DNA of 64,000 bases from an uncultured Gammaproteobacteria bacterium. GTDB taxonomy: Bacteria > Pseudomonadota > Gammaproteobacteria > GCA-002705445 > GCA-002716945. The position numbers and the translations under genes were made by a program. The DNA lies in assembly GCA_902605525.1 (NCBI GenBank), contig CACLCV010000002.1:6176-70175 (forward strand), given 5' to 3'. This document shows, piece by piece, positions 1,418-15,145 of the stretch. Under the pieces are notes generated by a model, which worked only from the letters and a program-made list of their open reading frames with translations, was not told where the DNA came from and searched no databases. Position 1 is the first letter of the stretch, and each line of letters begins with the position of its first letter.

Positions 1418-1969
1418 TCAGTTACGTACCGCTTCAGCCATCTTTTCAAAGTCTAGGTTACTATATTCAAATTCTTTCTCATCAAAAAGCGGATATGAAT
1501 ACAATTCTTTCCAGTCATTATGATAAGTTAATTTTTTTTCATCAATAGAAACAGTAAATTTAATTTTATAAGTATCGCTCCTTAAACCGGGAAGCTTTAT
1601 ATTTTCTGCATAATGAAAACCATCGCTTAGGTTTATATGAGGTGTTAACTCAACAGTATTTTTTTCTGTTGTATTTTCATTCGTTATCTCAGATATTATA
1701 ATGAGGTATGGAATAAATGCTTCTGGTAACTGTCCACTGATATCAATATCATTATTCCAATAAACAAGCGATTCAATGTGAATATCTGTTTCTTTTTCAG
1801 AAAGCACTTCCCTGGCATTATTATACAAAGTATCTTTTGGTGCAGCTTCAAATACTATATTGATGTCATTACTAAGATTGCCTTTCCCGATTATTAATTC
1901 CTCAGCATTAATAAAGCTCGCTATTGAAAAGAAAAGCCCCGATATTAATAAATTTGATACTATTTTCAT
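1418..1969 (-). CDS. Periplasmic P19/Tp34-family (Iron_transport, COG3470-like) metal-binding protein
   Basis: Has a signal peptide. Blocks DIHIESLVYW, PEAFIPYLIIISEITN and LTPHINLSDGFHYAENI align by eye to Campylobacter P19 blocks DIHLEADIHA, PEGFWMPYLTIAYELKN and LMPMVADDGPHYGANI. Confidence 0.6.
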   Translation of the reverse strand: MKIVSNLLISGLFFSIASFINAEELIIGKGNLSNDINIVFEAAPKDTLYNNAREVLSEKETDIHIESLVYWNNDIDISGQLPEAFIPYLIIISEITNENTTEKNTVELTPHINLSDGFHYAENIKLPGLRSDTYKIKFTVSIDEKKLTYHNDWKELYSYPLFDEKEFEYSNLDFEKMAEAVRN

Positions 1970-2496
1970 AACTGTGCCATTATGTTTTCTGGTGAGGTTT
2001 CCCCATATGGATCATCAGAAAAATCGTCAGATTTCCCTGGCTCTTCAAAAATTTTTTCAATTTTACAATTATCAACTATCATGGCGTATCGCCAGCTTCT
2101 AATACCAAATCCAAGGTTTCCCTTTGAGACATTCATGCCCATCGCAGTAGTAAATTCGCAATTACCGTCTGGAATTATCTTTATATTTTTGATACCTAAG
2201 TCAGAAGCCCAAGCGTTCATCACAAAAGCATCGTTAACAGAAACCACATATATATCATCAATACCTTTTTCTTTAAATTTATCAAAATTATTCTCAAACC
2301 CAGGTAATTGATATGTAGAACAAGTCGGTGTAAAAGCTCCAGGTAGAGAAAAGATTATAACTTTTTGATTAGAAAATAACTCTAAGGTTGATTTTTCAAT
2401 AAATTTTCCACCAACTGGACAAGTACCGCTTTCTGGTCTTATGTCACCCTCGCGGAAACAAAATTTAATATCAGGTATAGAATCGCCTGCTTTCAT
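1966..2496 (-). CDS. Peroxiredoxin, Prx5 (type 5, AhpC/TSA) subfamily
   Basis: Contains the PGAFTPTCS peroxidatic-Cys motif. Length is 176 aa. Overlaps the downstream P19-like gene by 4 nt. Confidence 0.85.
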   Translation of the reverse strand: MKAGDSIPDIKFCFREGDIRPESGTCPVGGKFIEKSTLELFSNQKVIIFSLPGAFTPTCSTYQLPGFENNFDKFKEKGIDDIYVVSVNDAFVMNAWASDLGIKNIKIIPDGNCEFTTAMGMNVSKGNLGFGIRSWRYAMIVDNCKIEKIFEEPGKSDDFSDDPYGETSPENIMAQL

Positions 2497-2528
2497 TATA
2501 AACTCCTGTTATATTTTTCTATCCCTGA

Positions 2529-2540
2529 ATTATCATTATA
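2529..2540 (-). promoter_or_regulatory. Candidate Fur-type box overlapping a perfect -10 hexamer upstream of the prx5 operon
   Basis: The minus strand reads TATAATGATAAT. Of this, ATAATGATAAT is an exact 11-nt match to the core of the Fur consensus GATAATGATAATCATTATC. It lies 33-44 nt upstream of the prx5 ATG. The rest of the 19-mer does not match, and the AT-rich background weakens the call. Confidence 0.3.
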
Positions 2541-2659
2541 ATTTAAAGAACTATTTTTTCAATTTATAATGAGGTTCTAAGGGACTAAAAAAGATATTGT
2601 TTTTTCCATATCTATTGAGGAATAGACATAGTATTCATAAAATACTAGTATAAGATCGC

Positions 2660-3058
2660 ATGCAAATGGATATAACAATTACTTACACAATTATTCTTAT
2701 AATCTTCATGTTAATTTTAGCTTTCAGGGTCATAGACTTGCGAGGGAGCCCGGTCACTAAATTTCTCCACTCTGATGATCGCGTAGTAGATGAGGATACC
2801 TTATACAGAGCAGTCAGGGCGCATGGAAATTTAATTGAATACGCGCCATTATTTTTGATTTTGATGCTCATAGCAGAGCTAAATGGCTTATCTTCATTCT
2901 ATTTACATGTTAGTGGTAGCATTTTTACGGCAGGAAGATTTATGCACGGCATAGTTTTCTCTTTTATGAAACCAAATATGATCCTAAGAGTGGGTGGAAT
3001 GATACTTACATTCACAGGGTTTATTGTATTAATAACTGCAATAGTCTATTCGCTGTAG
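2660..3058 (+). CDS. MAPEG-family inner-membrane protein (YecN-like)
   Basis: 132 aa with multiple TM segments. The RAHGNLIEYAPLFLILM block is typical of MAPEG proteins. Confidence 0.65.
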   Translation: MQMDITITYTIILIIFMLILAFRVIDLRGSPVTKFLHSDDRVVDEDTLYRAVRAHGNLIEYAPLFLILMLIAELNGLSSFYLHVSGSIFTAGRFMHGIVFSFMKPNMILRVGGMILTFTGFIVLITAIVYSL

Positions 3059-3098
3059 CACATAACTTCTTATTGATAAAAATCATTAATATAGAATA

Positions 3099-3743
3099 TT
3101 GAATCGGGTTGATAAATATTATAATATACCCCCTATGGGTATAATAAATAAAACAGTTATTATTTTATTGTTAGTTGTAACTTCTGATGCTGCATTCTCA
3201 AGACCTATATCATGGTCGGGAGGGTCAACTATTATGTATAAAACCAACAGCATGTATTCATCATATTATTATCATTACTCTCCTATTTATAAATACTCAC
3301 TAGGATTAGAGTATATTAACGATCGTCATTTTAATGACCAGTATATTAATCTAAAAACGACATACCTTTTAGGAAGGAAAAATACTAAGTCGTCACAAGC
3401 CAATTTGTATTTAACGGGAGGTGTATCAACCAAATCAAAGAATAATCACTTTTATGGTATTCATGGTGATTGGGAAACGAGAAGATTATTTACGTCATTC
3501 TCAGTCATTAACAAAGACACAGATGTAACTGACTATACGGAAAATGAACTTACATTTGGAGTTGCGCCTTATCTTGGTGAATATAATGATTTACATACCT
3601 GGGTTATGGTAAAAGCTAAAAAAGATACGATTAATAATAATTGGGAGACATATCCATTCATGAAATTTTTTAAAGGTGATTCTCTTGTAGAAATTGGTGC
3701 AAAAAATTCACACTGGGATATTCACTATATGTTAAGGTTTTAA
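3099..3743 (+). CDS. Putative small outer-membrane beta-barrel protein
   Basis: Signal peptide MGIINKTVIILLLVVTSDAAFS (an alternative start at 3135 is likely). Alternating aromatic-rich strands. C-terminal ...HYMLRF ends in Phe, as in OMP sorting signals. First gene of the HMA / MerT-like / CsoR cluster. Confidence 0.5.
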   Translation: MNRVDKYYNIPPMGIINKTVIILLLVVTSDAAFSRPISWSGGSTIMYKTNSMYSSYYYHYSPIYKYSLGLEYINDRHFNDQYINLKTTYLLGRKNTKSSQANLYLTGGVSTKSKNNHFYGIHGDWETRRLFTSFSVINKDTDVTDYTENELTFGVAPYLGEYNDLHTWVMVKAKKDTINNNWETYPFMKFFKGDSLVEIGAKNSHWDIHYMLRF

Positions 3744-3759
3744 ACTAAGGAGAACTATT

Positions 3760-4170
3760 ATGTACAAAATATTATTATCGTTAATTATATTATCATCGAA
3801 TACCGTCCTTGCTATGGATGGTATGCATAATCATGATTCACATAATCATAATAAACATCAAGATATGACCTATGTAGACGGATCTAAAACAAAGATTACT
3901 GATGAAATGTTTTCAAGTTTTAGTGCTGGTTTGTCTAATACACAGATTGTAATTGTAGATGTACAAGGAATGGTATGTGATTTCTGTGCAAGAGGAATAG
4001 AAAAAACATTTAATGATGACAAAGATGTTAAAAAAGTAGATGTAAGTCTGGATAAAGGAAAAGTTATGATAGCTTATTCTATGAACAAAGAAGTAGATTT
4101 GAATGAAATTAAGAATATTTTCTTATCTAACGGGCAAACAGCTACTGGAATTGTAATACGAAAAGTTTAA
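3760..4170 (+). CDS. Periplasmic heavy-metal-associated (HMA, MerP/CopZ-like) protein with a His/Met-rich N-terminus
   Basis: Signal peptide, then MDGMHNHDSHNHNKHQDM, then the HMA motif GMVCDFCARGIEK. Confidence 0.75.
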   Translation: MYKILLSLIILSSNTVLAMDGMHNHDSHNHNKHQDMTYVDGSKTKITDEMFSSFSAGLSNTQIVIVDVQGMVCDFCARGIEKTFNDDKDVKKVDVSLDKGKVMIAYSMNKEVDLNEIKNIFLSNGQTATGIVIRKV

Positions 4171-4173
4171 ATT

Positions 4174-4551
4174 ATGTTTAAAGATAATGAATCAATGAAA
4201 CTTGGATTGATTACACTTTTTGCTTCTTCATCAACACTTATATGTTGTGCTTTACCTGCTCTATTTGTTCTACTTGGAGCAGGTGCAACGTTTGCATCAA
4301 TAGTGAATTTTTTTCCTCAGTTGATTGTTATCTCTCAATATAAAATTACTATTTCCATAGTTACAGGAATTATTTTATTACTTGCAGGTTTTTTAATAAA
4401 AAAAGCTTCCTTGCTACCATGTCCAACAGATCCAGATTTAAGAGATACGTGTCTAAAAACTAGAAAAAGATCTAAAGTTATTTATTTTGCTTCTATTGGA
4501 ATATTTGTTTTCGCTAGTTTTTTTACTTATGTATTACCCATTTATCTATGA
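4174..4551 (+). CDS. MerT-like three-TM thiophilic-metal transport protein
   Basis: A vicinal CC lies in TM1 (STLICCALPALFVLLGAG). A Cys pair lies in the loop after TM2 (LPCPTDPDLRDTC), followed by a third TM. Size and topology match MerT. Confidence 0.55.
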   Translation: MFKDNESMKLGLITLFASSSTLICCALPALFVLLGAGATFASIVNFFPQLIVISQYKITISIVTGIILLLAGFLIKKASLLPCPTDPDLRDTCLKTRKRSKVIYFASIGIFVFASFFTYVLPIYL

Positions 4552-4552
4552 C

Positions 4553-4816
4553 ATGATAGAAAATCCATCACATAAAAAGCAACTGGCTTCATTAAAGAGG
4601 ATTGAAGGTCAAATTCGTGGAATCATTAATATGATTGATAATGGTAAATATTGTATTGATGTTCTAAATCAGATTAAGGCTGCAAAATCAGCACTAGTAT
4701 CTGTGGAATCAAAAGTACTCAAAACACACGTTGAATCATGCGTTAGAAATTCATTTAAAAGTAAAAAAGCTCTCGATACCAAAGTGGATGAGCTCTTGAA
4801 GCTAATCAATAAGTAA
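4553..4816 (+). CDS. CsoR/RcnR/FrmR-family metal-sensing transcriptional repressor (C-H-C fingerprint, CsoR-like)
   Basis: The ATG at 4553 sits just after the upstream stop. The sequence LKRIEGQIRGIINMIDNGKYCIDVLNQIKAAKSAL...HVESC matches the DUF156 family, with a Cys...His-x3-Cys ligand pattern. Confidence 0.8.
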   Translation: MIENPSHKKQLASLKRIEGQIRGIINMIDNGKYCIDVLNQIKAAKSALVSVESKVLKTHVESCVRNSFKSKKALDTKVDELLKLINK

Positions 4817-6863: not shown

Positions 6864-8069
6864 TTAATTCCATTCTGGAAAAGGATCTTTTAATGTCTTC
6901 CAGTAAGCTTTACCCTTTAACACCTCTTCTTCACTTAAGAGGCAATCATCCAGTTTATTTGTGATTTCTTTTTGATTTAATTCTTGTCCTATAAAAACTA
7001 ATTCTTGGCGCATATCTCCGAAAGGCTCCACCCATAATCTTTTTATTGATTCTAGGTATTCCTCATCTTCAGGCCAGTCTTTCTTTGGTACCGCTTTCCA
7101 AAATAATCCTGCATATCCATAACGCGCTATTCCTCCAGCTTGGCTCCACTGTCCAGCAAAAGTAGGTCGTGTTGCTAACCAAAAATATCCTTTCGAACGA
7201 ATCAATTTACCGTACTGTTTTGTATTGTGCAGAAAATTAAAGAATTTGTCTGGATGAAAAGGTCTTCGTGCCTCATAACTAAAACTTGCAATACCATATT
7301 CTTCTGTTTCTGGGACATGCTCTCCTCTCATTTCTTTAAGCCACCCTGGAGACTGTTGAGCTTTTTCGAAATCAAATAAACCTGTATCCAATACATTATT
7401 TATTTCCACATTCCCATTAGAGATAGGAATTATTTTAGCTGTAGTATTAAGGGTTTTTAAGATTGCTGTAAGACGGTCAATACCTGGTGCACTAACTAAA
7501 TCAGTTTTACTGACTAATATGATGTCAGCAAACTCTACCTGCTCGACCAATAAATCTGATACACTCCTCTCATCATCTTCGCCAAGAGATTCTCCTGTAT
7601 CTTTCAGGTATTTTGCCTCATCATAATCTTTTAAAAAATTGACAGCATCAACAACTGTTACCATAGTATCGAGATTCGCTACATCTGATAATGAGTTACC
7701 GTCTTCATCTGCAAATGTAAATGTTTCCGCCACAGGCAAAGGTTCTGATATACCAGTTGATTCTATAACTAGATAATCAAAACGTCCTTCTTTTGCTAGT
7801 TTATTAATCTCTATCAAAAGATCTTCTCTTAATGTGCAGCAGATACAACCATTGCTCATTTCGACAAGCTTTTCTTCACTATGATTTAATGAGACTTCAT
7901 TTTTTACAATTGCAGCATCAATATTAATTTCGCTCATATCATTAACTATTACTGCTACTTTTTTATTGTCTCTATTATTAAGTATGTGGCTTAGGACAGT
8001 TGTTTTACCTGCTCCAAGAAAACCTGACAGGACGGTAACTGGTAGTTTATCAATTGCTGTATTTCTCAT
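6864..8069 (-). CDS. COG0523-family G3E GTPase (CobW/ZigA/YeiR-like metallochaperone)
   Basis: Walker A GFLGAGKTT, metal motif GCICCTLR, SKTDL, and a CobW C-terminal domain. Confidence 0.9.
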   Translation of the reverse strand: MRNTAIDKLPVTVLSGFLGAGKTTVLSHILNNRDNKKVAVIVNDMSEINIDAAIVKNEVSLNHSEEKLVEMSNGCICCTLREDLLIEINKLAKEGRFDYLVIESTGISEPLPVAETFTFADEDGNSLSDVANLDTMVTVVDAVNFLKDYDEAKYLKDTGESLGEDDERSVSDLLVEQVEFADIILVSKTDLVSAPGIDRLTAILKTLNTTAKIIPISNGNVEINNVLDTGLFDFEKAQQSPGWLKEMRGEHVPETEEYGIASFSYEARRPFHPDKFFNFLHNTKQYGKLIRSKGYFWLATRPTFAGQWSQAGGIARYGYAGLFWKAVPKKDWPEDEEYLESIKRLWVEPFGDMRQELVFIGQELNQKEITNKLDDCLLSEEEVLKGKAYWKTLKDPFPEWN

Positions 8070-8395
8070 GATTAATCCAAAAAAAACTTTATATTATCAA
8101 AATATCATAGCTGTCAACCCTATCTATTGGTGAGGTATGGATGAGTTGTCATGGTAGAGATTGCGCCTATGCTCAAGTAAATAACAAATGTTTATATTAG
8201 TGCTATAACCACAAAAACAATCAGTGCATATACGGCTAACTCTACAAATGGACTTCCATTTGGTCTTTCGTTAAAGAATTTCATGTCTCTTCCCCTGCTA
8301 ATGTTTGAACTATTATTACACAAATTTATGGTCATATGTATATTTAGGGTTAAGATAAAGACTATGAAATATATACTTAATGAGAGAGTAATAAT

Positions 8396-8758
8396 ATGAA
8401 TTTAATTAAAGTTATAGAAAAAGGATTACTTGGTGTGATTGCACTACTGACGATTGTTGCAACCATCCAAGAGATAGTTTCAATATACATGATAGGTAGA
8501 GTTAACTTGCCTGATTTGTTGTTACTGTTTATATATACAGAGGTTTTAGGCATGATTGGTGTATTTTATGTAAGTAACAAAATACCTATAACATTACCCT
8601 TGTTCATTGCCATGACTGCACTATCAAGATTGATAATACTACAGGGTAAGGACATGGAACCGAGTACATTAATTTACGAGGCAGGTGCGATATTACTAAT
8701 TGCAATTGCTTGCCTTATTATTAGGTACCGACCATCAAATCAAAGCACAGAGTTATGA
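8396..8758 (+). CDS. Small multi-TM membrane protein, possibly PsiE-like
   Basis: 120 aa with 3-4 TM segments. LLLLFIYTEVLGMI weakly resembles PsiE. Confidence 0.4.
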   Translation: MNLIKVIEKGLLGVIALLTIVATIQEIVSIYMIGRVNLPDLLLLFIYTEVLGMIGVFYVSNKIPITLPLFIAMTALSRLIILQGKDMEPSTLIYEAGAILLIAIACLIIRYRPSNQSTEL

Positions 8759-8823
8759 TTGTAACAATATTTTTTAAGTACATAAGACTTGCTTTTAATG
8801 ATGTCTAATCAAAAAGATAAATT

Positions 8824-9363
8824 ATGGGCAAAGCTGCACTAGCTATTAGAAAAAATATCGCGGTTATAAAAGACTTCCCTATCAAGGGTATCAGCTTTCA
8901 AGACATTTTCTCAATAACTAGAAAACCAGAAATATTCAAGTTAATTATTCAGGAAATAATTAAGGTTATAAAAAAACATAAAATCACCACGATAGTCGGA
9001 ATCGAATCTCGAGGTTTTTTATTTGGGGCTGTTGCCGCTTACAAAGCTGATCTTCCACTCATTCCAATAAGAAAATCGGGAAAATTGCCCGGTAAGATAA
9101 CTAAAGTAAAATATAAATTAGAATATGGTCATGATATCGTTGAGATTCAATCTTCAGTAGTAAAAAAATCAGATAATATCTTGTTAGTTGACGACCTAAT
9201 AGCGACAGGAGGTACAGCATTAGCATCAGTTAAATTACTGAGAAAGTTCAATAGTAAACAAATTAATTCTTTTTTTGTTATTGATTTAGAGAACTTAAAG
9301 GGTTCAGATAAACTCAAAAACCAAGGTATAAAAATCCATTCATTGTATAAAACAGACGGATAG
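8824..9363 (+). CDS. apt: Adenine phosphoribosyltransferase
   Basis: FPIKGISFQDI, GIESRGFLFG and the PRPP loop LLVDDLIATGGT. Confidence 0.9.
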   Translation: MGKAALAIRKNIAVIKDFPIKGISFQDIFSITRKPEIFKLIIQEIIKVIKKHKITTIVGIESRGFLFGAVAAYKADLPLIPIRKSGKLPGKITKVKYKLEYGHDIVEIQSSVVKKSDNILLVDDLIATGGTALASVKLLRKFNSKQINSFFVIDLENLKGSDKLKNQGIKIHSLYKTDG

Positions 9364-9539
9364 AGAAAGATTAGAAGTATGGAGATTTCCTTACATTGCA
9401 ATTAGACCAGATTGCGAGTAATATTTCCAATCATGTTAATGGTACTCACATCATGTGTACGTCATTCTATAGTACTAGGGCCAATAGAGATATGTGGAGT
9501 AATGAACAATGTGTACCTGAACCAACAAGGAAGTAAAAT

Positions 9540-9725
9540 ATGAGTGAACAAGGACCAAATGGGAGGCCAAAACCTGACTTATTAAAATCTGCATTAGAAA
9601 TAGTTTTTGTTACGATTTTTATACCCGCACTTGTTGTCGGGATAATCATATTTTCAGTAGAGGATTTTGCACTATTTAACGCCATGGAACCTCTTATATT
9701 GGAGTGGTGGAGAGAATTGTTTTAA
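9540..9725 (+). CDS. Small single-TM protein (61 aa), hypothetical
   Basis: An AGGAAG Shine-Dalgarno lies 7 nt upstream. Contains the hydrophobic helix IVFVTIFIPALVVGIIIF. Confidence 0.35.
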   Translation: MSEQGPNGRPKPDLLKSALEIVFVTIFIPALVVGIIIFSVEDFALFNAMEPLILEWWRELF

Positions 9726-9862
9726 TGAATAGAATTTACAACATCATCATAGATAAACTTGTAATGTCTGTATCAATCGTTGTACTTATTATTTACCTTT
9801 CGTTTTATTTTCTGACATTATGGTGGATTTTTTCAAAGATTATAAAAATGAGTATATCTTGA
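9725..9862 (+). CDS. Small single-TM protein (45 aa), hypothetical
   Basis: TAATG overlap with the preceding ORF suggests translational coupling. My translation is MNRIYNIIIDKLVMSVSIVVLIIYLSFYFLTLWWIFSKIIKMSIS. Confidence 0.3.
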   Translation: MNRIYNIIIDKLVMSVSIVVLIIYLSFYFLTLWWIFSKIIKMSIS

Positions 9863-9883
9863 TGTACTGATATTGATATTGAG

Positions 9884-9903
9884 TGGTCATGGGTGGATTT
9901 GAA
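9884..9903. repeat. Left att-like repeat, a displaced copy of the tRNA-Met 3' end
   Basis: tggtcatgggtggatttgaa here versus tggtcatgggtggacttgaa at 15072-15091, in direct orientation. Confidence 0.8.
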
Positions 9904-9912
9904 AGTTAATCT

Positions 9913-9935
9913 CACCCCCTATAAACATTGACCTG
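9913..9935. repeat. Left copy of the imperfect inverted repeat near the island ends
   Basis: caccccctataaacattgacctg compared with the reverse complement of 15026-15048 (caacccccatgtttattgacctc) matches at 16 of 23 positions. Alignment was done by hand. Confidence 0.45.
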
Positions 9936-9953
9936 TAAACCAACTAATTGTTG

Positions 9954-9976
9954 TTTGTACACTTATTTGTACACTT
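9954..9976. repeat. 23-bp arm/operator-like element, left copy (two TGTACA palindromes 12 bp apart)
   Basis: tttgtacacttatttgtacactt is identical to 14972-14994. It is itself a 12-bp tandem (tttgtacactta followed by tttgtacactt). Confidence 0.85.
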
Positions 9977-9993
9977 TGTAATAGACTAGGTAT

Positions 9994-10704
9994 ATGAGAA
10001 TATTTTCCTGGAATTGTAAGATGAGATTTAGAGACGACTATGCTCAAGCACTATCTTATAAACCAGATGTTATGGTTATTCCTGAGTGCGAAACTTTAGA
10101 TAAAATTAAAGCTCCTGAGACATCGGATAGCTACTGGATTGGAGATAATGTATCTAAAGGGTTGGGTGTATTCACTTTCAATGACTTCAAAATAGATTTA
10201 TATGATAAATACACTAATGAATTTAAATACATCTTGCCTCTTATAGTATCGAGAGGTGATATCAGCTATAAGCTCATTGCTGTATGGACAAAGAAAGTTG
10301 AAGATAAAAAGAAAAATCATATTAATTATATAAGACAGTTACATTTTGCTCTTAAAGAGTATGAATCATTCATTGATGATGAGAATGTAATTATTACTGG
10401 AGACTTAAATAGCAACCTTATTTGGGAAAGAACAGGTGTGGATAAAAATCATCAAGATGTTCTAGACCAATTATTGGATAAAAACATACATAGTTCCTAT
10501 CACCACTTCTTTAGAGAAGAGCAAGGTAAAGAAAAACAAGGAACCTATTTTCATTACCATAAGGAGGATAGGCCATTTCATATAGATTTTTGCTTTCTTT
10601 CCAAAAATATTTTAGATAGATTAAAGAGTGTAGAAATTGGAAAATTTAAGGACTGGATACACTTAAGCGATCATGTCCCAGTTATAATAGATACAGATGA
10701 ATAA
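9994..10704 (+). CDS. Endonuclease/exonuclease/phosphatase (EEP, ExoIII/DNase I-like) family protein
   Basis: EEP catalytic blocks appear in order: IFSWNC, VMVIPECE, IITGDLNS, HLSDHVPVI. Confidence 0.75.
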   Translation: MRIFSWNCKMRFRDDYAQALSYKPDVMVIPECETLDKIKAPETSDSYWIGDNVSKGLGVFTFNDFKIDLYDKYTNEFKYILPLIVSRGDISYKLIAVWTKKVEDKKKNHINYIRQLHFALKEYESFIDDENVIITGDLNSNLIWERTGVDKNHQDVLDQLLDKNIHSSYHHFFREEQGKEKQGTYFHYHKEDRPFHIDFCFLSKNILDRLKSVEIGKFKDWIHLSDHVPVIIDTDE

Positions 10705-11188
10705 ATTACTTCCCATATTATTAAGTAACCAATCTAATTATGAGTTTATCTTGGATTCTTTACGTGCACAAAGACTGGCAACCTTCTTAGATAAAAGTTT
10801 TTTACAAGAACGTTCCTCTAGAAGGTCAAGGCGTTATTCTTATATGAAATTTCATTATAATCATGTTCCTGTTTGTACTGCTTCATCTAGAAGAAATAGA
10901 AGACTATTCTATAATGATTGGGATGAAGTATATCTTGAAAAGTATTGTATACAACTTGAGGCAGGGATTCTTGATGTATCAAAAATTACATGGAAAACTT
11001 TTATACCATCTCTAAGTTTCATTATAGAATTTTTTGAATTTATTTTTGATAAAGAATTTTGGAAAAAAATTTATAAAAGTAAAGATTTTAGGGAAGGATT
11101 GAAAGATGAGTTTATTGAGATGATATATGATTATGCAGTTTGGCCTATAGCAATAATTGGAATAGTATACTTATATACCTTGGTATGA
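10697..11188 (+). CDS. Hypothetical protein with Arg-rich segments and a C-terminal TM helix
   Basis: 163 aa. Overlaps the EEP gene by 8 nt. Contains RSSRRSRRYSY and SSRRNRRLFY, and the C-terminal helix AVWPIAIIGIVYLYTLV. Confidence 0.45.
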   Translation: MNKLLPILLSNQSNYEFILDSLRAQRLATFLDKSFLQERSSRRSRRYSYMKFHYNHVPVCTASSRRNRRLFYNDWDEVYLEKYCIQLEAGILDVSKITWKTFIPSLSFIIEFFEFIFDKEFWKKIYKSKDFREGLKDEFIEMIYDYAVWPIAIIGIVYLYTLV

Positions 11189-11433
11189 ATAAATTAAAAG
11201 TAGTAAAAAAGACTCATCATTGTTGGCAATGTGAGGAGAAAGATAACTTCCCTGCTTCATGTGCTTGGTGTCAGTCAAAGATATGTGGTAAGTGTCATTG
11301 TTGTAGTGAGAAGTGTATCAAATCATGGACTCCGTGTACCAAAGTTATTCACTATGAGGGCATACCATATCTGTATGAAGTTATAGATGAGTCAGGGTTA
11401 AGTATAATTCCTGATGAGGATATACCTTTTTAA
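11185..11433 (+). CDS. Cys-rich mini-protein (82 aa), putative cross-brace zinc finger
   Basis: ATGA overlap with the upstream ORF. Contains HHCWQCEEKDNFPASCAWCQSKICGKCHCCSEKC, i.e. C-x2-C-x10-C-x2-C-x4-C-x2-C-H-C-C-x3-C. Confidence 0.5.
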   Translation: MNKLKVVKKTHHCWQCEEKDNFPASCAWCQSKICGKCHCCSEKCIKSWTPCTKVIHYEGIPYLYEVIDESGLSIIPDEDIPF

Positions 11434-13985
11434 GGTTTGTGATTTACATTAGTGTTTTTCTTAATTGATTGCGTATATTTACAATCAGAGTTAGGGCGGT
11501 ATGTATGGCAACTTAAAAAACGTTCTCCTGTATTACTGTTAACTTTTTCTTGTAATATTCCCGCATCACAGCCTTTACAATTTTCGTATTCATATCCACA
11601 AGTGTCACAAGTGCTTTTATATTTTCCTCGAACTACCAGTCCATCACACCCATCTTGTTGACAATTAAAACCAACATAATTGCAGACAGGATCTCTATTA
11701 CAAATATAACGAGGTTTTGGACCATACTTGCTCTTTAATTTCCTAATACTGCCCGTTTTACAAGCAGGACATTTTCTTTGTAGGAATTTGGTTGGCTTAA
11801 TTATGTTAACATTAGGATAATCTGCTATCTCATCTGCAAATGGAGATCGGTCTTCATAATCACATAACATGTGTAGATAAAACTTTGCTCTTGTCATACC
11901 TACGTATAATAATCTCCTCTCATCTGAAAATGAGAAGTCATCATGCTTATCTAAGACCATACTCAGGATTTCATCAGTCTTGTAACTAGTAGGGAAGCTA
12001 CTACGCCCATGTTCTTTTTTTGAACCCTCTAGACCAATGATTAAAATCACATCTTCTTCGTGCCCTTTTGATGAATGCAGACTCTTAAATCTTACTTTTC
12101 TTCCGTTACCCCATAATTGTCGAATTTTGGTACTTAATTTTTCGGGTGGATTGTATTTATTGTATCTAAATAAAATTAGAAGGTTTTTTGATTTATTCTC
12201 TTCTTTTTTGGAATATTCCTCCACCCACTTGCGTATACTATCTTCAATACTCATAGGTTCAATCCAATGAAGGTATACGGAGGATTTATCTGATTTTTTA
12301 TGTGTGACTAATTCTTTTGAGATTTGGTTTGGATTTTTCATAAGAAATTTACTTGAAGCATCATTGATAGAATTATCGAATCTAAATGTCTTATTAAGCT
12401 GTACCATCGACGAATCATTTGATTTATTAAAATGTCTATCAAAGTTTCTCATTAGACTTGGTTCTGCTCCTCTGAAACTAAAAATAGATTGCCAGTCATC
12501 ACCGACACAATATAATTTTACCTCATTACTAGCCTCTGTTTTTGCAGAAACATAAGTTCCTGACAATAGAGATTTTATAAAATTACAATCTGACATAGAG
12601 ATATCTTGAAACTCGTCAACAATAATATATTTAAATTTATGCTTGAATGAATCAGTATCTAAATAATCTCTTGCGGTATTAACCATATCATTAAAATCAA
12701 TATTAGTACCCAGTGACTCCTCATATTTATTTTTTATAGGATTATACAGTTTTAAAAATTGTGATTGCCGAGCATTACTTGGTTCCTTATTTTTAAGTTT
12801 AGCTTTGTCTAAATCCAAAAATCTAAGTACAAGTTTGGAATACTCGGTTACTTGATATTTGGGTAGTTGATCATAAATCTCATTAATACTTTTTGGGTAA
12901 AAATCAATATTGTTATTAACAAGACTTTCTTTTAGTTTTTCCTGCCATGATTCTTCAATAATGTCATAGAAAAATATCTCAATAAGAATTGTTTTATTTT
13001 TTTCATGAATAGATCTCTTCCACTCCATATCTTTTTTGTACTTATGATTATCTATATCTTTTCTAGTATTTCCTTTTCTATCTAAACCAAAATATTCTAT
13101 GTATACATTAGAATCTTTAATATGAAAATCTGGTTTATGAGAATCACTAGTACGTGGTCTATACATATCTTCATATTCATATGATATTCCATTTGAATAG
13201 AGGAAGTTGGCAATAGATAGTTCTCCAAAACTTTTTACATAATCACCTTTTATTGTATAGAATGGGTTTGCTTGTAAATAGTCTAGGTACTCTTGTTCGC
13301 TCTTAAATTTACCATCGATATTCTCAACACTATAGTGTTGAAAAAATTCGACAAAGCTTTTTTTGAAATTGATATTATCTATACATAGCTCTTTTATTAT
13401 TCCATCTATATGCATAATCGTTGAAGTATGTGAATCAAGAAAATTAGCAATTGTGGGCTTCTTTTTTTCTTGGTTTTCAATAATATTTTTTGCAAATGCA
13501 TGTATGGTTTTTATAATAATTTTATTTTTACCTATTTTATCCTCAAGTCTTGATCTTAGTTCTTCACCTGCTGCTTTAGTAAATACAATTAGGAGTATTT
13601 CATCTTCATTACATTTCTTAGACTCAAGTAGAAAAAGAATTTTTGCAATAATTGTTGTTGTTTTACCGGTCCCAGCTCCCGAGATAATAAGGTTATTTCC
13701 TTTGTCTGTTACAACAGCAATCTTTTGGTTATCTGTTAATGGCGGATTGAAACTATTGAAAAATTTTTTATAGCTTTCGATGATACCTATTTCTCTGGTG
13801 AATATTTTCTTTTTAAGTTTTTTTTCCCTCGTTTTATTATCAGTATCTTCTAAAAGCTTCAGCCCGTAGTACCAAATAACGAACATTAATATCAATGGCA
13901 AAAAAGGAGGTATGTTAAGAGAAATTAGAAATATAAAGACCGCAAACCCAACAATAGTTACAATATTCTCACCTTTATGTGACAT
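11430..13985 (-). CDS. Membrane-anchored UvrD/Rep/helicase IV-like SF1 helicase with an embedded PD-(D/E)xK nuclease-like module and C-terminal topoisomerase-type zinc ribbons
   Basis: N-terminal hydrophobic hairpin IVTIVGFAVFIFLISLNIPPFLPLILMFVIWYYGL. Helicase motifs are Walker A SGAGTGKTTT, motif II IIVDEFQD, motif III VGDDWQSIFSFRGA and motif VI LLYVGMTRAK. An insert ELSIANFLYSNGISYEYE...KPDFHI...VYIEYFG is present. The last ~130 aa contain more than 15 Cys in C-x2-C / C-x4-C pairs. Confidence 0.8.
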   Translation of the reverse strand: MSHKGENIVTIVGFAVFIFLISLNIPPFLPLILMFVIWYYGLKLLEDTDNKTREKKLKKKIFTREIGIIESYKKFFNSFNPPLTDNQKIAVVTDKGNNLIISGAGTGKTTTIIAKILFLLESKKCNEDEILLIVFTKAAGEELRSRLEDKIGKNKIIIKTIHAFAKNIIENQEKKKPTIANFLDSHTSTIMHIDGIIKELCIDNINFKKSFVEFFQHYSVENIDGKFKSEQEYLDYLQANPFYTIKGDYVKSFGELSIANFLYSNGISYEYEDMYRPRTSDSHKPDFHIKDSNVYIEYFGLDRKGNTRKDIDNHKYKKDMEWKRSIHEKNKTILIEIFFYDIIEESWQEKLKESLVNNNIDFYPKSINEIYDQLPKYQVTEYSKLVLRFLDLDKAKLKNKEPSNARQSQFLKLYNPIKNKYEESLGTNIDFNDMVNTARDYLDTDSFKHKFKYIIVDEFQDISMSDCNFIKSLLSGTYVSAKTEASNEVKLYCVGDDWQSIFSFRGAEPSLMRNFDRHFNKSNDSSMVQLNKTFRFDNSINDASSKFLMKNPNQISKELVTHKKSDKSSVYLHWIEPMSIEDSIRKWVEEYSKKEENKSKNLLILFRYNKYNPPEKLSTKIRQLWGNGRKVRFKSLHSSKGHEEDVILIIGLEGSKKEHGRSSFPTSYKTDEILSMVLDKHDDFSFSDERRLLYVGMTRAKFYLHMLCDYEDRSPFADEIADYPNVNIIKPTKFLQRKCPACKTGSIRKLKSKYGPKPRYICNRDPVCNYVGFNCQQDGCDGLVVRGKYKSTCDTCGYEYENCKGCDAGILQEKVNSNTGERFLSCHTYRPNSDCKYTQSIKKNTNVNHKP

Positions 13986-14000
13986 GATTCTCTTTAGATA

Positions 14001-14858
14001 TTATTTTTTTATCTGCTTGTTGACTAATTTAAGTGACTCAATATCAAGCCCTTTTACTTTTACTAAGTTTTTAAATATAGATGCAAGAAATCTAATAGTG
14101 TAATTTTCAAGATTATCTAACAAGAAACTATATTCGGGATTAAGTTCAAAAAAAAGAAACTTATCAAATTTCTCAAGCGCTACCCTTGATGAATCTTCTT
14201 TAACTCTATTACCAAAAATATTCGCTTTACCAACATATAATTCTTTAGAATCTGAATCATGTAGAATATATACTATATTTGTTCGATTAGAATACGATGA
14301 AACTTCTTTTGATTTAATCCACTTATCAGAATACGATATAAACAACTTATCTTTTTTCTTTTTCTTACTATTTTCATCTTTCCAAAAGGCAAAAAGATTT
14401 TTGTCTTCCATAAACTCAAACATTCTATCAAAATCTGTCTCTTGCTTACTGATAACATTTATTTTGAAAGAATTATTCCCTTTATATTCAAACTCCAACA
14501 ACTCCTTTAGTTTAGGTTTCGATTTGTCTATAGTTGATGCATAACTAAATATAACAAGTTTTCTGAGAGCTTTAAGAGTATCTGGCTCACCATCATAAAA
14601 TATTTGAACTACCTCTCTCTCGGGATATATTGTTGAGGACCTATTCTTAATCTTTCCCTGATTATTTATTCTTGCAATACGTATTTTTGCATCAAATTTT
14701 TTTCTACCAATCTCCAGTTCAATGGGTTTGACTAAAGAACCTAATTTTAGTCCAAAGAACTTTTTATACTCGTCATATACAGATTTTTTAAGTGTGAATC
14801 CCCAATAGAAAAATGTATACCCAGGTACAACGTAAAATGGTGATAAATTTGCACTCAT
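14001..14858 (-). CDS. GIY-YIG nuclease-domain protein with an uncharacterised N-terminal domain
   Basis: The C-terminal IVYILHDSDSKELYVGKANIFGNRVKE matches the UvrC/Cho-type motif GIY-x9-YVGKA-x5-R. The N-terminal ~180 aa is unrecognised. Lies 15 nt upstream of the helicase gene on the same strand. Confidence 0.6.
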   Translation of the reverse strand: MSANLSPFYVVPGYTFFYWGFTLKKSVYDEYKKFFGLKLGSLVKPIELEIGRKKFDAKIRIARINNQGKIKNRSSTIYPEREVVQIFYDGEPDTLKALRKLVIFSYASTIDKSKPKLKELLEFEYKGNNSFKINVISKQETDFDRMFEFMEDKNLFAFWKDENSKKKKKDKLFISYSDKWIKSKEVSSYSNRTNIVYILHDSDSKELYVGKANIFGNRVKEDSSRVALEKFDKFLFFELNPEYSFLLDNLENYTIRFLASIFKNLVKVKGLDIESLKLVNKQIKK

Positions 14859-14971
14859 GATTAAATATTATCATATTTACTTGGTAAGACTTCACGAGAC
14901 ATACTTTTGAGTAGCGCTGATTTTTAATGAGAAATGTTATGAAATCTAGTCATTAGTAAAAGAGTTTTTGA

Positions 14972-14994
14972 TTTGTACACTTATTTGTACACTT
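14972..14994. repeat. 23-bp arm/operator-like element, right copy
   Basis: Identical to 9954-9976 and in the same orientation. Confidence 0.85.
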
Positions 14995-15025
14995 GAGATG
15001 ATAAATTAGGTGTTTTCAAAAACTA

Positions 15026-15048
15026 GAGGTCAATAAACATGGGGGTTG
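15026..15048. repeat. Right copy of the imperfect inverted repeat near the island ends
   Basis: gaggtcaataaacatgggggttg. See 9913-9935. Confidence 0.45.
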
Positions 15049-15071
15049 TAGGATTGAAAAAGCTTTGTTTA

Positions 15072-15145
15072 TGGTCATGGGTGGACTTGAACCACCGACC
15101 GCAGCGTTATGAGTGCTGTGCTCTAACCAACTGAGCTACATGACC
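15072..15145 (-). tRNA. tRNA-Met (anticodon CAT, elongator-like), CCA not encoded
   Basis: The minus strand reads GGTCATGTAGCTCAGTTGGTTAGAGCACAGCACTCATAACGCTGCGGTCGGTGGTTCAAGTCCACCCATGACCA. It folds as a cloverleaf with anticodon loop CTCATAA and is close to E. coli metT. A lysidine-modified Ile2 identity cannot be excluded. Confidence 0.9.

Follow-up and report, generated by a model that had tools for sequence, protein, structure and literature searches.

The segment at the 3' end of a tRNA-Met(CAT) gene analysed here comes from an uncultured gammaproteobacterium (contig CACLCV010000002.1 of assembly GCA_902605525.1, positions 6,176 to 70,175), and the whole stretch of 64,000 nucleotides (nt) is called the window. 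The unit under study occupies 9904-15071, between two copies of the tRNA 3' end, and carries five genes in two convergent operons: a putative EEP-fold nuclease, an Arg-rich protein (gene 2) and a Cys-rich mini-protein on one strand, a UvrD-type helicase and a predicted GIY-YIG nuclease on the other (Table 1). The initial annotation had described an integrase-less island bounded by a repeat of the last 20 nt of the tRNA gene at 9884-9903. This repeat is confirmed, with 19 of 20 positions identical, and two such matches at one mismatch arose in none of 100 dinucleotide shuffles. The 23-bp element seen at both ends, TTTGTACACTTATTTGTACACTT, has perfect copies at 9954-9976 and 14972-14994 but no other in the window, and the five open reading frames lie where they had been placed, the third beginning at 11140 as listed or at 11185. 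Both operons are tightly packed and translationally coupled, and the 3' ends of the helicase and mini-protein genes overlap by 4 nt. The G+C content of the island equals that of its flanks. The tRNA is the sole RNA match in a Rfam search of the window; a sub-threshold match to an HtrA thermometer within the helicase gene was disregarded.

Table 1. Features at the tRNA-Met locus, numbered by window position
Feature	Position	Strand	Basis or remark
120-amino-acid membrane protein gene, weakly PsiE-like	8396-8758	+	NCBIfam PsiE 1e-07, below cut-off
Strain-specific segment with apt and two tiny hydrophobic open reading frames	8760-9883		Missing from L006, L007, L011 and L013
apt	8824-9363	+	NCBIfam TIGR01090, 187.6 against a cut-off of 185.85
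attL, distal att copy	9884-9903	-	19/20 against the tRNA 3' end
Distal arm: doublet at 9954-9976, 27 nt, AATGTTTATAGGGGGTGAG, 17 nt, core	9904-9976	-	Aligned with 11 other distal arms
Putative EEP-fold nuclease of L1-EN/ExoIII/APE1 type, 236 amino acids	9994-10704	+	AlphaFold2, Foldseek, invariant residues
Gene 2: Arg-rich protein, 163 amino acids, C-terminal hydrophobic segment	10697-11188	+	First 27 nt are e27
Cys-rich mini-protein, 82 amino acids from Met16 of the listed reading frame	11185-11433	+	About 11 Cys; ends in PDEDIPF
Helicase, 851 amino acids	11430-13985	-	Pfam UvrD-helicase 4.5e-41
Predicted nuclease with N-terminal B3-like pseudobarrel and C-terminal GIY-YIG domain, 285 amino acids	14001-14858	-	Pfam, AlphaFold2, Foldseek
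tRNA-proximal arm, TAAACAAAGCTTTTTCAATCCTACAACCCCCATGTTTATTGAC...AAGTGTACAAATAAGTGTACAAA	14972-15071	-	Doublet at 14972-14994; aligned with 17 other proximal arms
attR core copy, the 3' 20 nt of the tRNA, TGGTCATGGGTGGACTTGAA	15072-15091	-	Junction catalogue
tRNA-Met(CAT) gene	15072-15145	-	ARAGORN; Rfam tRNA 69.6 bits

Comparison with related genomes and metagenome contigs leads us to favour, with moderate confidence, the view that 9904-15071 is one non-autonomous integrative unit, resembling a cis-mobilizable element (CIME), in an additive island that changes through trans-mobilised site-specific integration together with homologous shuffling. A YchF scan places the source among uncultured marine, SAR86-like gammaproteobacteria, and the relatives that it gathered are SAR86-type single-amplified and metagenome-assembled genomes; these and the other loci compared carry L numbers, L007 being LRMED-302 (PMC12379486). 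The gene order prs-rplY-pth-ychF-tRNA-Met is kept among the relatives, and flank identity is 84-97% though the inserts differ. A real insertion at the tRNA 3' end, as proposed at first, is borne out by empty-site alleles in L011 (tRNA 3401-3474, flank from 3619) and L013 (tRNA 11078-11151, flank gene from 11252), which consist of the tRNA, 100-145 bp and then the gene for a 120-amino-acid membrane protein, the native flank sequence after tRNA-Met being TGAATCTA... The same five genes are not a fixture of the locus. In L006 the tRNA is followed by an unrelated insert of about 7 kb with DUF4116, Cas4-like and TerB-like proteins, and in L007 by an unrelated tandem array, also of about 7 kb, with att copies at 7872-7891, 11066-11085 and 14533-14552 and cargo that includes ADH, PhoX, PPK2 and an autotransporter.

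The same comparison moves the left boundary. In L006 (YchF 97% identical) and L007 (95%), the closest relatives, nucleotide homology runs from 17000 to about 15039-15068 and returns only at 8759. The variable region is therefore 8760-15071, and apt and the interval 9364-9883 are strain-specific as well. The boundary at 9884 given initially does not hold, and the description of the genes outside the repeats as core stands on the right side only. The true island boundary lies at the gene for the 120-amino-acid protein, with which conservation sets in again on the far side; from 8759-8760 this gene has 84-90% nucleotide identity in L006, L007, L011 and L013.

The unit belongs to a family with a common end structure. 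Scanning metagenomes with a proximal-arm pattern, AAGCTTTTNNAATCCTACAACCC, brought 14 further contigs, all with the order core, arm, doublet, cargo, doublet, arm, core. Each unit has a core of 12-20 nt identical to the tRNA 3' end and two conserved arms of about 70-100 nt. Read in tRNA orientation, the core (T)CACCCATGACCA, present in every unit of the junction catalogue, is followed by TAATCTAAGCTTTTTCAATCCTACAACCCgCATGTTTATTGAC..., about 25 nt and AAGTGTACnnATAAGTGTACnnA before the cargo, and the cargo by AAGTGTACnnATAAGTGTACnnA, 27 nt, AATGTTTATArGGGGTGAGA, about 17 nt and the next core. The doublet is a tandem pair of an 11-12 nt motif, present in both arms in the same orientation. Lambda-type tyrosine integrases classically act on an attP of this plan, in which a core is combined with arm-type doublets whose direct repeats are spaced by one helical turn and stand at set distances on both arms. 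Mean pairwise identity is 0.77 for 18 aligned proximal arms, and mean identity is 0.68 for 12 distal arms, the window included in both. Over about 94 nt the distal arm of the window shows no difference from L063 2360-2453, which borders other cargo, and the ends of the window, L001 and L006 are conserved despite unlike cargo. Complete matched arms with doublets at fixed spacing were found in more than 25 units, some of them single-gene. In L006 and L072 no intact distal att copy is present, the sequence being either degenerate or absent. An ACACCCC...GGGGTG hairpin in the distal arm was considered as an IS200- or attC-like signal and rejected, since the stem is missing from the distal arm of the window.

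The units, 1.1-5 kb long, form tandem arrays. L063 has four cores, and its units of 1.14-1.2 kb hold one small open reading frame apiece; other units measure 1.5 kb (L068), 1.86 kb (L062), 1.8 kb (L071) and 3.9 kb (L064). The tRNA end occurs three times in L007 and two to three times in L062, L064, L065, L068 and L071. The same core is combined with other doublets on both arms (ACTGTACATAT, ATGGGAATAT, GGGTACCyGAT); at least four doublet classes, AAGTGTACnnnT among them, share one core, and a fifth occurs in L087. This locus belongs to another SAR86 lineage, and its core, AAATGGCTATGGGT, fits that lineage's own tRNA-Met; at 7880-9030 a CATTTACCACA doublet stands on both sides of a lone GIY-YIG gene, 82% identical, in a 1.1-kb unit. 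Array cargo is very diverse, with PhoX, PPK2, a two-component system, Zorya II, restriction-type genes, helicase-nucleases and lipoproteins; C5-methyltransferase, HNH and Z1 proteins lie in the arrays of L073 and L062. The L062 cargo (original coordinates 1456-4651) includes a ZorA2 homologue (PADLOC 1e-59) and, behind it, two proteins of about 305 amino acids; by sequence similarity this is probably a type II Zorya system.

Exchange within units is seen in a sister element at the same tRNA in metagenome contig L001 and also in L067. Compared with the window, the EEP gene of L001 is 90% and the mini-protein and helicase genes are 82% identical in nucleotides, while gene 2 is replaced by a 218-amino-acid lipoprotein behind the same first 27 nt and the GIY-YIG gene by a 77-amino-acid membrane protein. 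The break points of these replacements lie inside genes, not at att sites. The shared 27 nt, termed e27 (ATGAATAAATTACTTCCCATATTATTA, window 10697-10723), encode MNKLLPILL with the rare codons CTT and CCC. Further copies occur in L001 (397-423 and 3500-3526), L005 (3762, 4220 and 4716), L062, L064, L067, L068, L072, L073 and L024. Eighteen different downstream sequences begin with e27, about half of them lipoprotein or secreted genes, and the remaining copies are stubs of 8-34 codons behind another gene; in the window e27 is joined to a protein without a signal peptide. The repeat looks like a portable stretch of homology, a recombination joint by which gene bodies in cassettes could be exchanged.

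The units appear to carry no recombinase of their own, as the initial annotation had reported for the window. Recombinase, transposase and relaxase domains were absent from the window in Pfam, NCBIfam, PADLOC and PHROGs searches, including from within the five reading frames. For the jackhmmer searches, XerD and three real integrases (from L088, L095 and L085) were the seeds, and all six frames of the window and of all loci were covered, 1.22 Mb with about 45 SAR86-type loci; the positive controls were the only matches, and the XerD probe gave none. No recombinase was found among 71 cargo reading frames within the best 25 families of Pfam and PHROGs. The absence of an integrase makes the units non-autonomous. 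No related phage or satellite in IMG/VR carries the proximal-arm, doublet or 20-nt tRNA-fragment patterns; the matches to these three patterns have unrelated G+C content and none of the other features. One of the IMG/VR contigs, L085 (3300033553_000547), is a 9.4-kb 'viral' contig of 41% G+C with the same 20-nt tRNA-Met fragment at 8-27 and 9263-9282 and a 435-amino-acid integrase-like protein beside one end; the element is autonomous and unrelated, and uses the same tRNA core. The EEP nuclease, which abuts the distal arm, was considered as the element's own mobility enzyme and rejected, being present in only about 5 of more than 20 units.

In the mechanism that we favour, a circular form with an attP made of distal arm, core and proximal arm would recombine with the tRNA attB. 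The recombinase would be an unlinked lambda-type tyrosine integrase, encoded in the genome, by a phage or by an autonomous relative, whose arm-binding domain would read the doublets, and the several doublet classes would imply several helpers. Units would then be added, deleted or swapped as the repeated junctions recombine homologously. Of the two origins first offered for the island, the closer fit is a cis-mobilizable element whose recombinase is supplied in trans: the 23-bp element proves to be one of two arm-type doublets, and the arms recur in no fewer than 18 other units of unrelated cargo; the helper that such an element calls for was not found in the 1.22 Mb of loci or in IMG/VR.

Several observations weigh against this interpretation. 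Because no helper integrase for the arms was found in the 1.22 Mb of related loci or in IMG/VR, the case for trans-mobilisation is drawn from site architecture only; moreover, the restriction to the best 25 families for the 71 cargo reading frames may hide a weak recombinase match, and serine recombinases had no separate probe. Neither a circular junction nor a restored attB of the same population was observed among the contigs, and assembled circles or tandem self-copies were lacking, the repeats within arrays being arms only, of 54-208 nt. The empty sites stem from other lineages, with YchF 83-88% identical. L006 and unit 1 of L063 pair the proximal arm of one doublet class with the distal arm of another, a pairing that suggests fused units or recombined arrays and agrees with homologous shuffling no less than with integration. 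The apt segment, 8760-9883, has no recognisable arms or att remnant. As to the cargo, PADLOC gives only generic GajB-like UvrD matches in the window.

A somewhat unlikely alternative is that the arrays are fossils, decayed remnants of integrase-bearing islands that now vary only by homologous recombination of imported DNA, for which the conserved flanks (ychF and tRNA on one side, the 120-amino-acid protein gene on the other) and the repeated arm junctions would supply portable homology. It accommodates the lack of an integrase in about 45 SAR86-type loci, the hybrid arms of L006 and L063 and the degenerate or missing distal att copies, the e27 stubs indicate that short repeats do mediate cassette exchange here, and the gene replacements of the sister element break inside genes and not at att sites. 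However, more than 25 units keep complete arms with matched doublets, and an independent, precise loss of the integrase in each case is unlikely. Near-identical arms around unrelated cargo, as in the 94 nt shared with L063, point to recent spread and to selection on the arms, and the L087 lineage has its own core fitted to its own tRNA.

The proposed unit combines traits of several known systems. Like CIMEs, which have intact attL and attR and no integration or transfer genes (PMC6323972), the units form tandem arrays at one att site with both ends intact and would be expected to depend for their mobility on a recombinase from another element. They differ in that no cognate integrative and conjugative element (ICE) or other autonomous element was seen in the 1.22 Mb of loci or in IMG/VR, in a streamlined planktonic gammaproteobacterial host instead of Streptococcus, and in being far smaller and more numerous, with several arm-specificity classes. 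The island as a whole resembles the additive flexible genomic islands of streamlined aquatic bacteria, such as fGI-2 of 'Ca. Methylopumilus', where the last 20 bp of tRNA-Lys recur (PMC10872708), and those of Alteromonas (PMC3698932). In both cases the tRNA 3' end is repeated between cassettes beside a tRNA, sizes vary between close strains and most genes have no known function; here, too, the tRNA end recurs and block content varies between conserved flanks. The present locus differs in its attP-like arms with doublets, the several arm classes, the single-gene units and the absence of an integrase from the sampled copies, features of which no description was found in the literature searched.

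Tycheposons, known from Prochlorococcus (bioRxiv 10.1101/2020.12.28.424599) and, at tRNA-Met, from Methylophilaceae (PMC10872708), share the marine oligotrophic host, the tRNA target, tandem integrations parted by partial tRNA copies and cargo for nutrient uptake or defence. However, a tyrosine or large serine recombinase of their own beside the tRNA defines them, and replication modules are frequent; neither is present here. Integron arrays are likewise built from small cassettes, most of them with one gene and none with a recombinase, that lie between repeated recombination sites and have no cargo function in common. In contrast, the SAR86-type arrays have no intI, attI or attC, their sites are lambda-type arm/core/arm structures of about 200 bp on a tRNA 3' end, and their genes lie in both orientations with their own promoters.

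As a more far-reaching and tentative possibility, the SAR86-type locus may be a capture platform that works like an integron without integron parts. The tRNA-Met 3' end would be a universal docking site for dozens of recombinase-less cassettes of 1-5 kb, each with a full lambda-type attP and one of several interchangeable arm doublets as its address; unlinked recombinases would insert, excise and exchange them, with a second layer of exchange at e27. If so, it would rank among the main ways in which defence and nutrient genes are sampled by these streamlined cells. The locus bears on the turnover of flexible genes in streamlined ocean bacteria, which for the most part have no plasmids, ICEs or prophages. 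It offers an anatomically defined and searchable unit of a core, two arms and doublets, in which single genes or operons of unrelated function would move as recombinase-less cassettes at one SAR86 tRNA, and the arm motifs are a handle for locating the helper integrases and for counting cassette traffic in metagenomes.

On the evidence of co-occurrence patterns across contigs, the cargo is taken to be four independent modules and not a five-gene system: the EEP nuclease with a variable small gene, the Cys-rich protein, the membrane-anchored helicase and the B3-GIY-YIG nuclease. The EEP, helicase and B3-GIY-YIG modules most likely serve as separate functions against phages or DNA, a defence role read from fold and context. 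That the five genes match no named defence system, as first stated, agrees with the PADLOC 2.0 search, in which four of the five proteins were without a match and no named system was complete. None of the three findings that would have told against the initial proposal (the five genes fixed in all relatives, a recombinase domain inside a reading frame, confident matches of all genes to a named system) was encountered.

The 236-amino-acid EEP protein is, to judge from its predicted structure, a DNA-acting nuclease. Its Pfam Exo_endo_phos score of 23.6 bits lies 0.9 bit under the cut-off of 24.5, and sequence searches of the PDB were uninformative for it as for the GIY-YIG protein. The AlphaFold2 model (predicted local distance difference test, pLDDT, 88.6; predicted template-modelling score 0.90) gives Foldseek template-modelling (TM) scores of about 0.77 to LINE-1 endonuclease, ExoIII and APE1, the entries 1ako, 1vyb and 2v0s being among the matches. 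The four-layer alpha/beta sandwich and the E, D-x-N, D, D-H catalytic set, represented by the invariant residues E33, D137, N139, D198, D226 and H227, place it in the EEP family. Whenever present, the gene is the first at the distal arm (L001, L066, L067, L068), and homologues also lie on integrase-bearing islands such as the tmRNA island of L095 and L096. Gene 2 has no homologues in Pfam, NCBIfam, PADLOC or PHROGs.

The GIY-YIG protein scores 16.2 bits in Pfam, under the cut-off of 22.6, and its AlphaFold2 model has a pLDDT of 72. Invariance of Y197, Y208, G210, R218, E238 and N264 among 22 homologues assigns it to the superfamily. In Foldseek the N-terminal domain matches that of LlaJI.R1 with a probability of 0.99, and also the B3 domains of VRN1, ARF, RAV1 and BfiI, the fold match being modest (TM about 0.5 on the domain). 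A B3-like pseudobarrel joined to a nuclease or motor is the plan of the restriction enzymes BfiI, EcoRII and LlaJI.R1, whereas the catalytic domain here is GIY-YIG and there is no adjacent methyltransferase. Family members from SAR86, OM43 and Marinimicrobia are 55-82% identical, and a methyltransferase gene adjoins the GIY-YIG gene in none of six independent contexts. Because the GIY-YIG nuclease lacks a methyltransferase partner, its modelled architecture would most plausibly be that of a modification-dependent or otherwise self-sparing restriction-type nuclease. In an OM43 genome (L088, Methylophilales CP081940, 1260546-1277394), the GIY-YIG and EEP homologues share an island that starts with tRNA-Arg and a tyrosine integrase and that also contains a ResIII/Z1 protein.

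The 851-amino-acid protein consists of two N-terminal hydrophobic helices, a superfamily 1 (SF1) helicase of UvrD/PcrA type, a PD-(D/E)xK-like insert at about residues 250-330 and C-terminal topoisomerase-type zinc ribbons. Profile comparison with the PDB matches PcrA at 3e-55 and HelD structures only at 1e-11, with a weak match of the insert to T7 endonuclease I (E=0.003). The family has more than 2300 homologues; exact look-ups of the window's helicase and YchF returned no record. With Gabija GajB, Hhe, Nhi and HelD the protein shares an SF1 UvrD-type helicase, a nuclease domain and a defence-island context, but differs from all of them in its transmembrane helices, T7-endonuclease-I-like insert and zinc ribbons. 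PADLOC finds no GajA partner as in Gabija; the DUF4011/AAA_11/AAA_12 and Vsr/MTES_1575 architecture of Hhe is absent, and Hhe is not among the best 25 of 39 PADLOC matches; for helicase IV (NF008276) the score of 304 bits is under the cut-off of 543. Two widespread, uncharacterised candidate defence families are flagged, B3 with GIY-YIG and the transmembrane UvrD/PD-(D/E)xK/zinc-ribbon 'helicase IV-like' proteins, and with them an orphan putative zinc protein with an SSB-tip-like tail. In L002 (1095-5447) a 67%-identical helicase homologue adjoins a 1450-amino-acid PDC-S37/Hhe-type protein (PADLOC 4.5e-258), and in L005 a 50%-identical one lies beside a ZorD-like SNF2 gene.

The putative zinc protein is the Cys-rich mini-protein, most likely starting at 11185. 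It is an orphan family with 3 clusters among 1.84 billion representatives, and its copies are 82-84% identical in L001/L067, L061 and L065, where the neighbours differ. The PDEDIPF tail closely resembles the C-terminal tip with which bacterial SSB recruits its partner proteins (..DDDIPF), and the protein could be an adaptor or decoy. It is unlikely, though not without some appeal, that the helicase-nuclease and the convergent mini-protein form a smaller system of their own, for example an effector with an adaptor or antitoxin. The 4-nt overlap of their 3' ends is found in L001 as in the window, and in L061 the mini-protein gene is convergent to a different, 26%-identical UvrD-type helicase with the same PD-(D/E)xK insert motif. 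Against this, the mini-protein of L065 has no helicase neighbour, the contigs of the helicase homologues in L002 and L005 contain neither it nor any other partner from the window, and its family is confined to these islands whereas the helicase family has thousands of members.

That all five genes travel together as one new multi-nuclease/helicase system for defence or selfish DNA processing, the set originally proposed, is highly improbable: the two tight operons, the GIY-YIG and EEP homologues that are adjacent only in L098 and L099 and island-mates in OM43, and the trio of helicase, mini-protein and EEP genes retained in L001/L067 are outweighed by the absent GIY-YIG gene and different gene 2 of that same sister element, by GIY-YIG genes that stand alone in L087 and L091-L094, by EEP genes without a helicase in L066, L068 and L095, and by the changing company of the mini-protein and helicase.

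The strain-specific part of the island beyond the distal arm holds, by its profile match, a genuine adenine phosphoribosyltransferase gene, apt; none of the relatives has apt within 10 kb of ychF. The 125 bp just 3' of it (9374-9498) are 97% identical to L072 6222-6346, the sole other match of the segment 8760-9883. Further to the left, zigA, a gene for a zinc metallochaperone GTPase (NCBIfam 701 bits), occupies 6866-8180 as a second strain-specific insertion, and L006, L007 and L013 pass straight from 8180 to 6866 without it.

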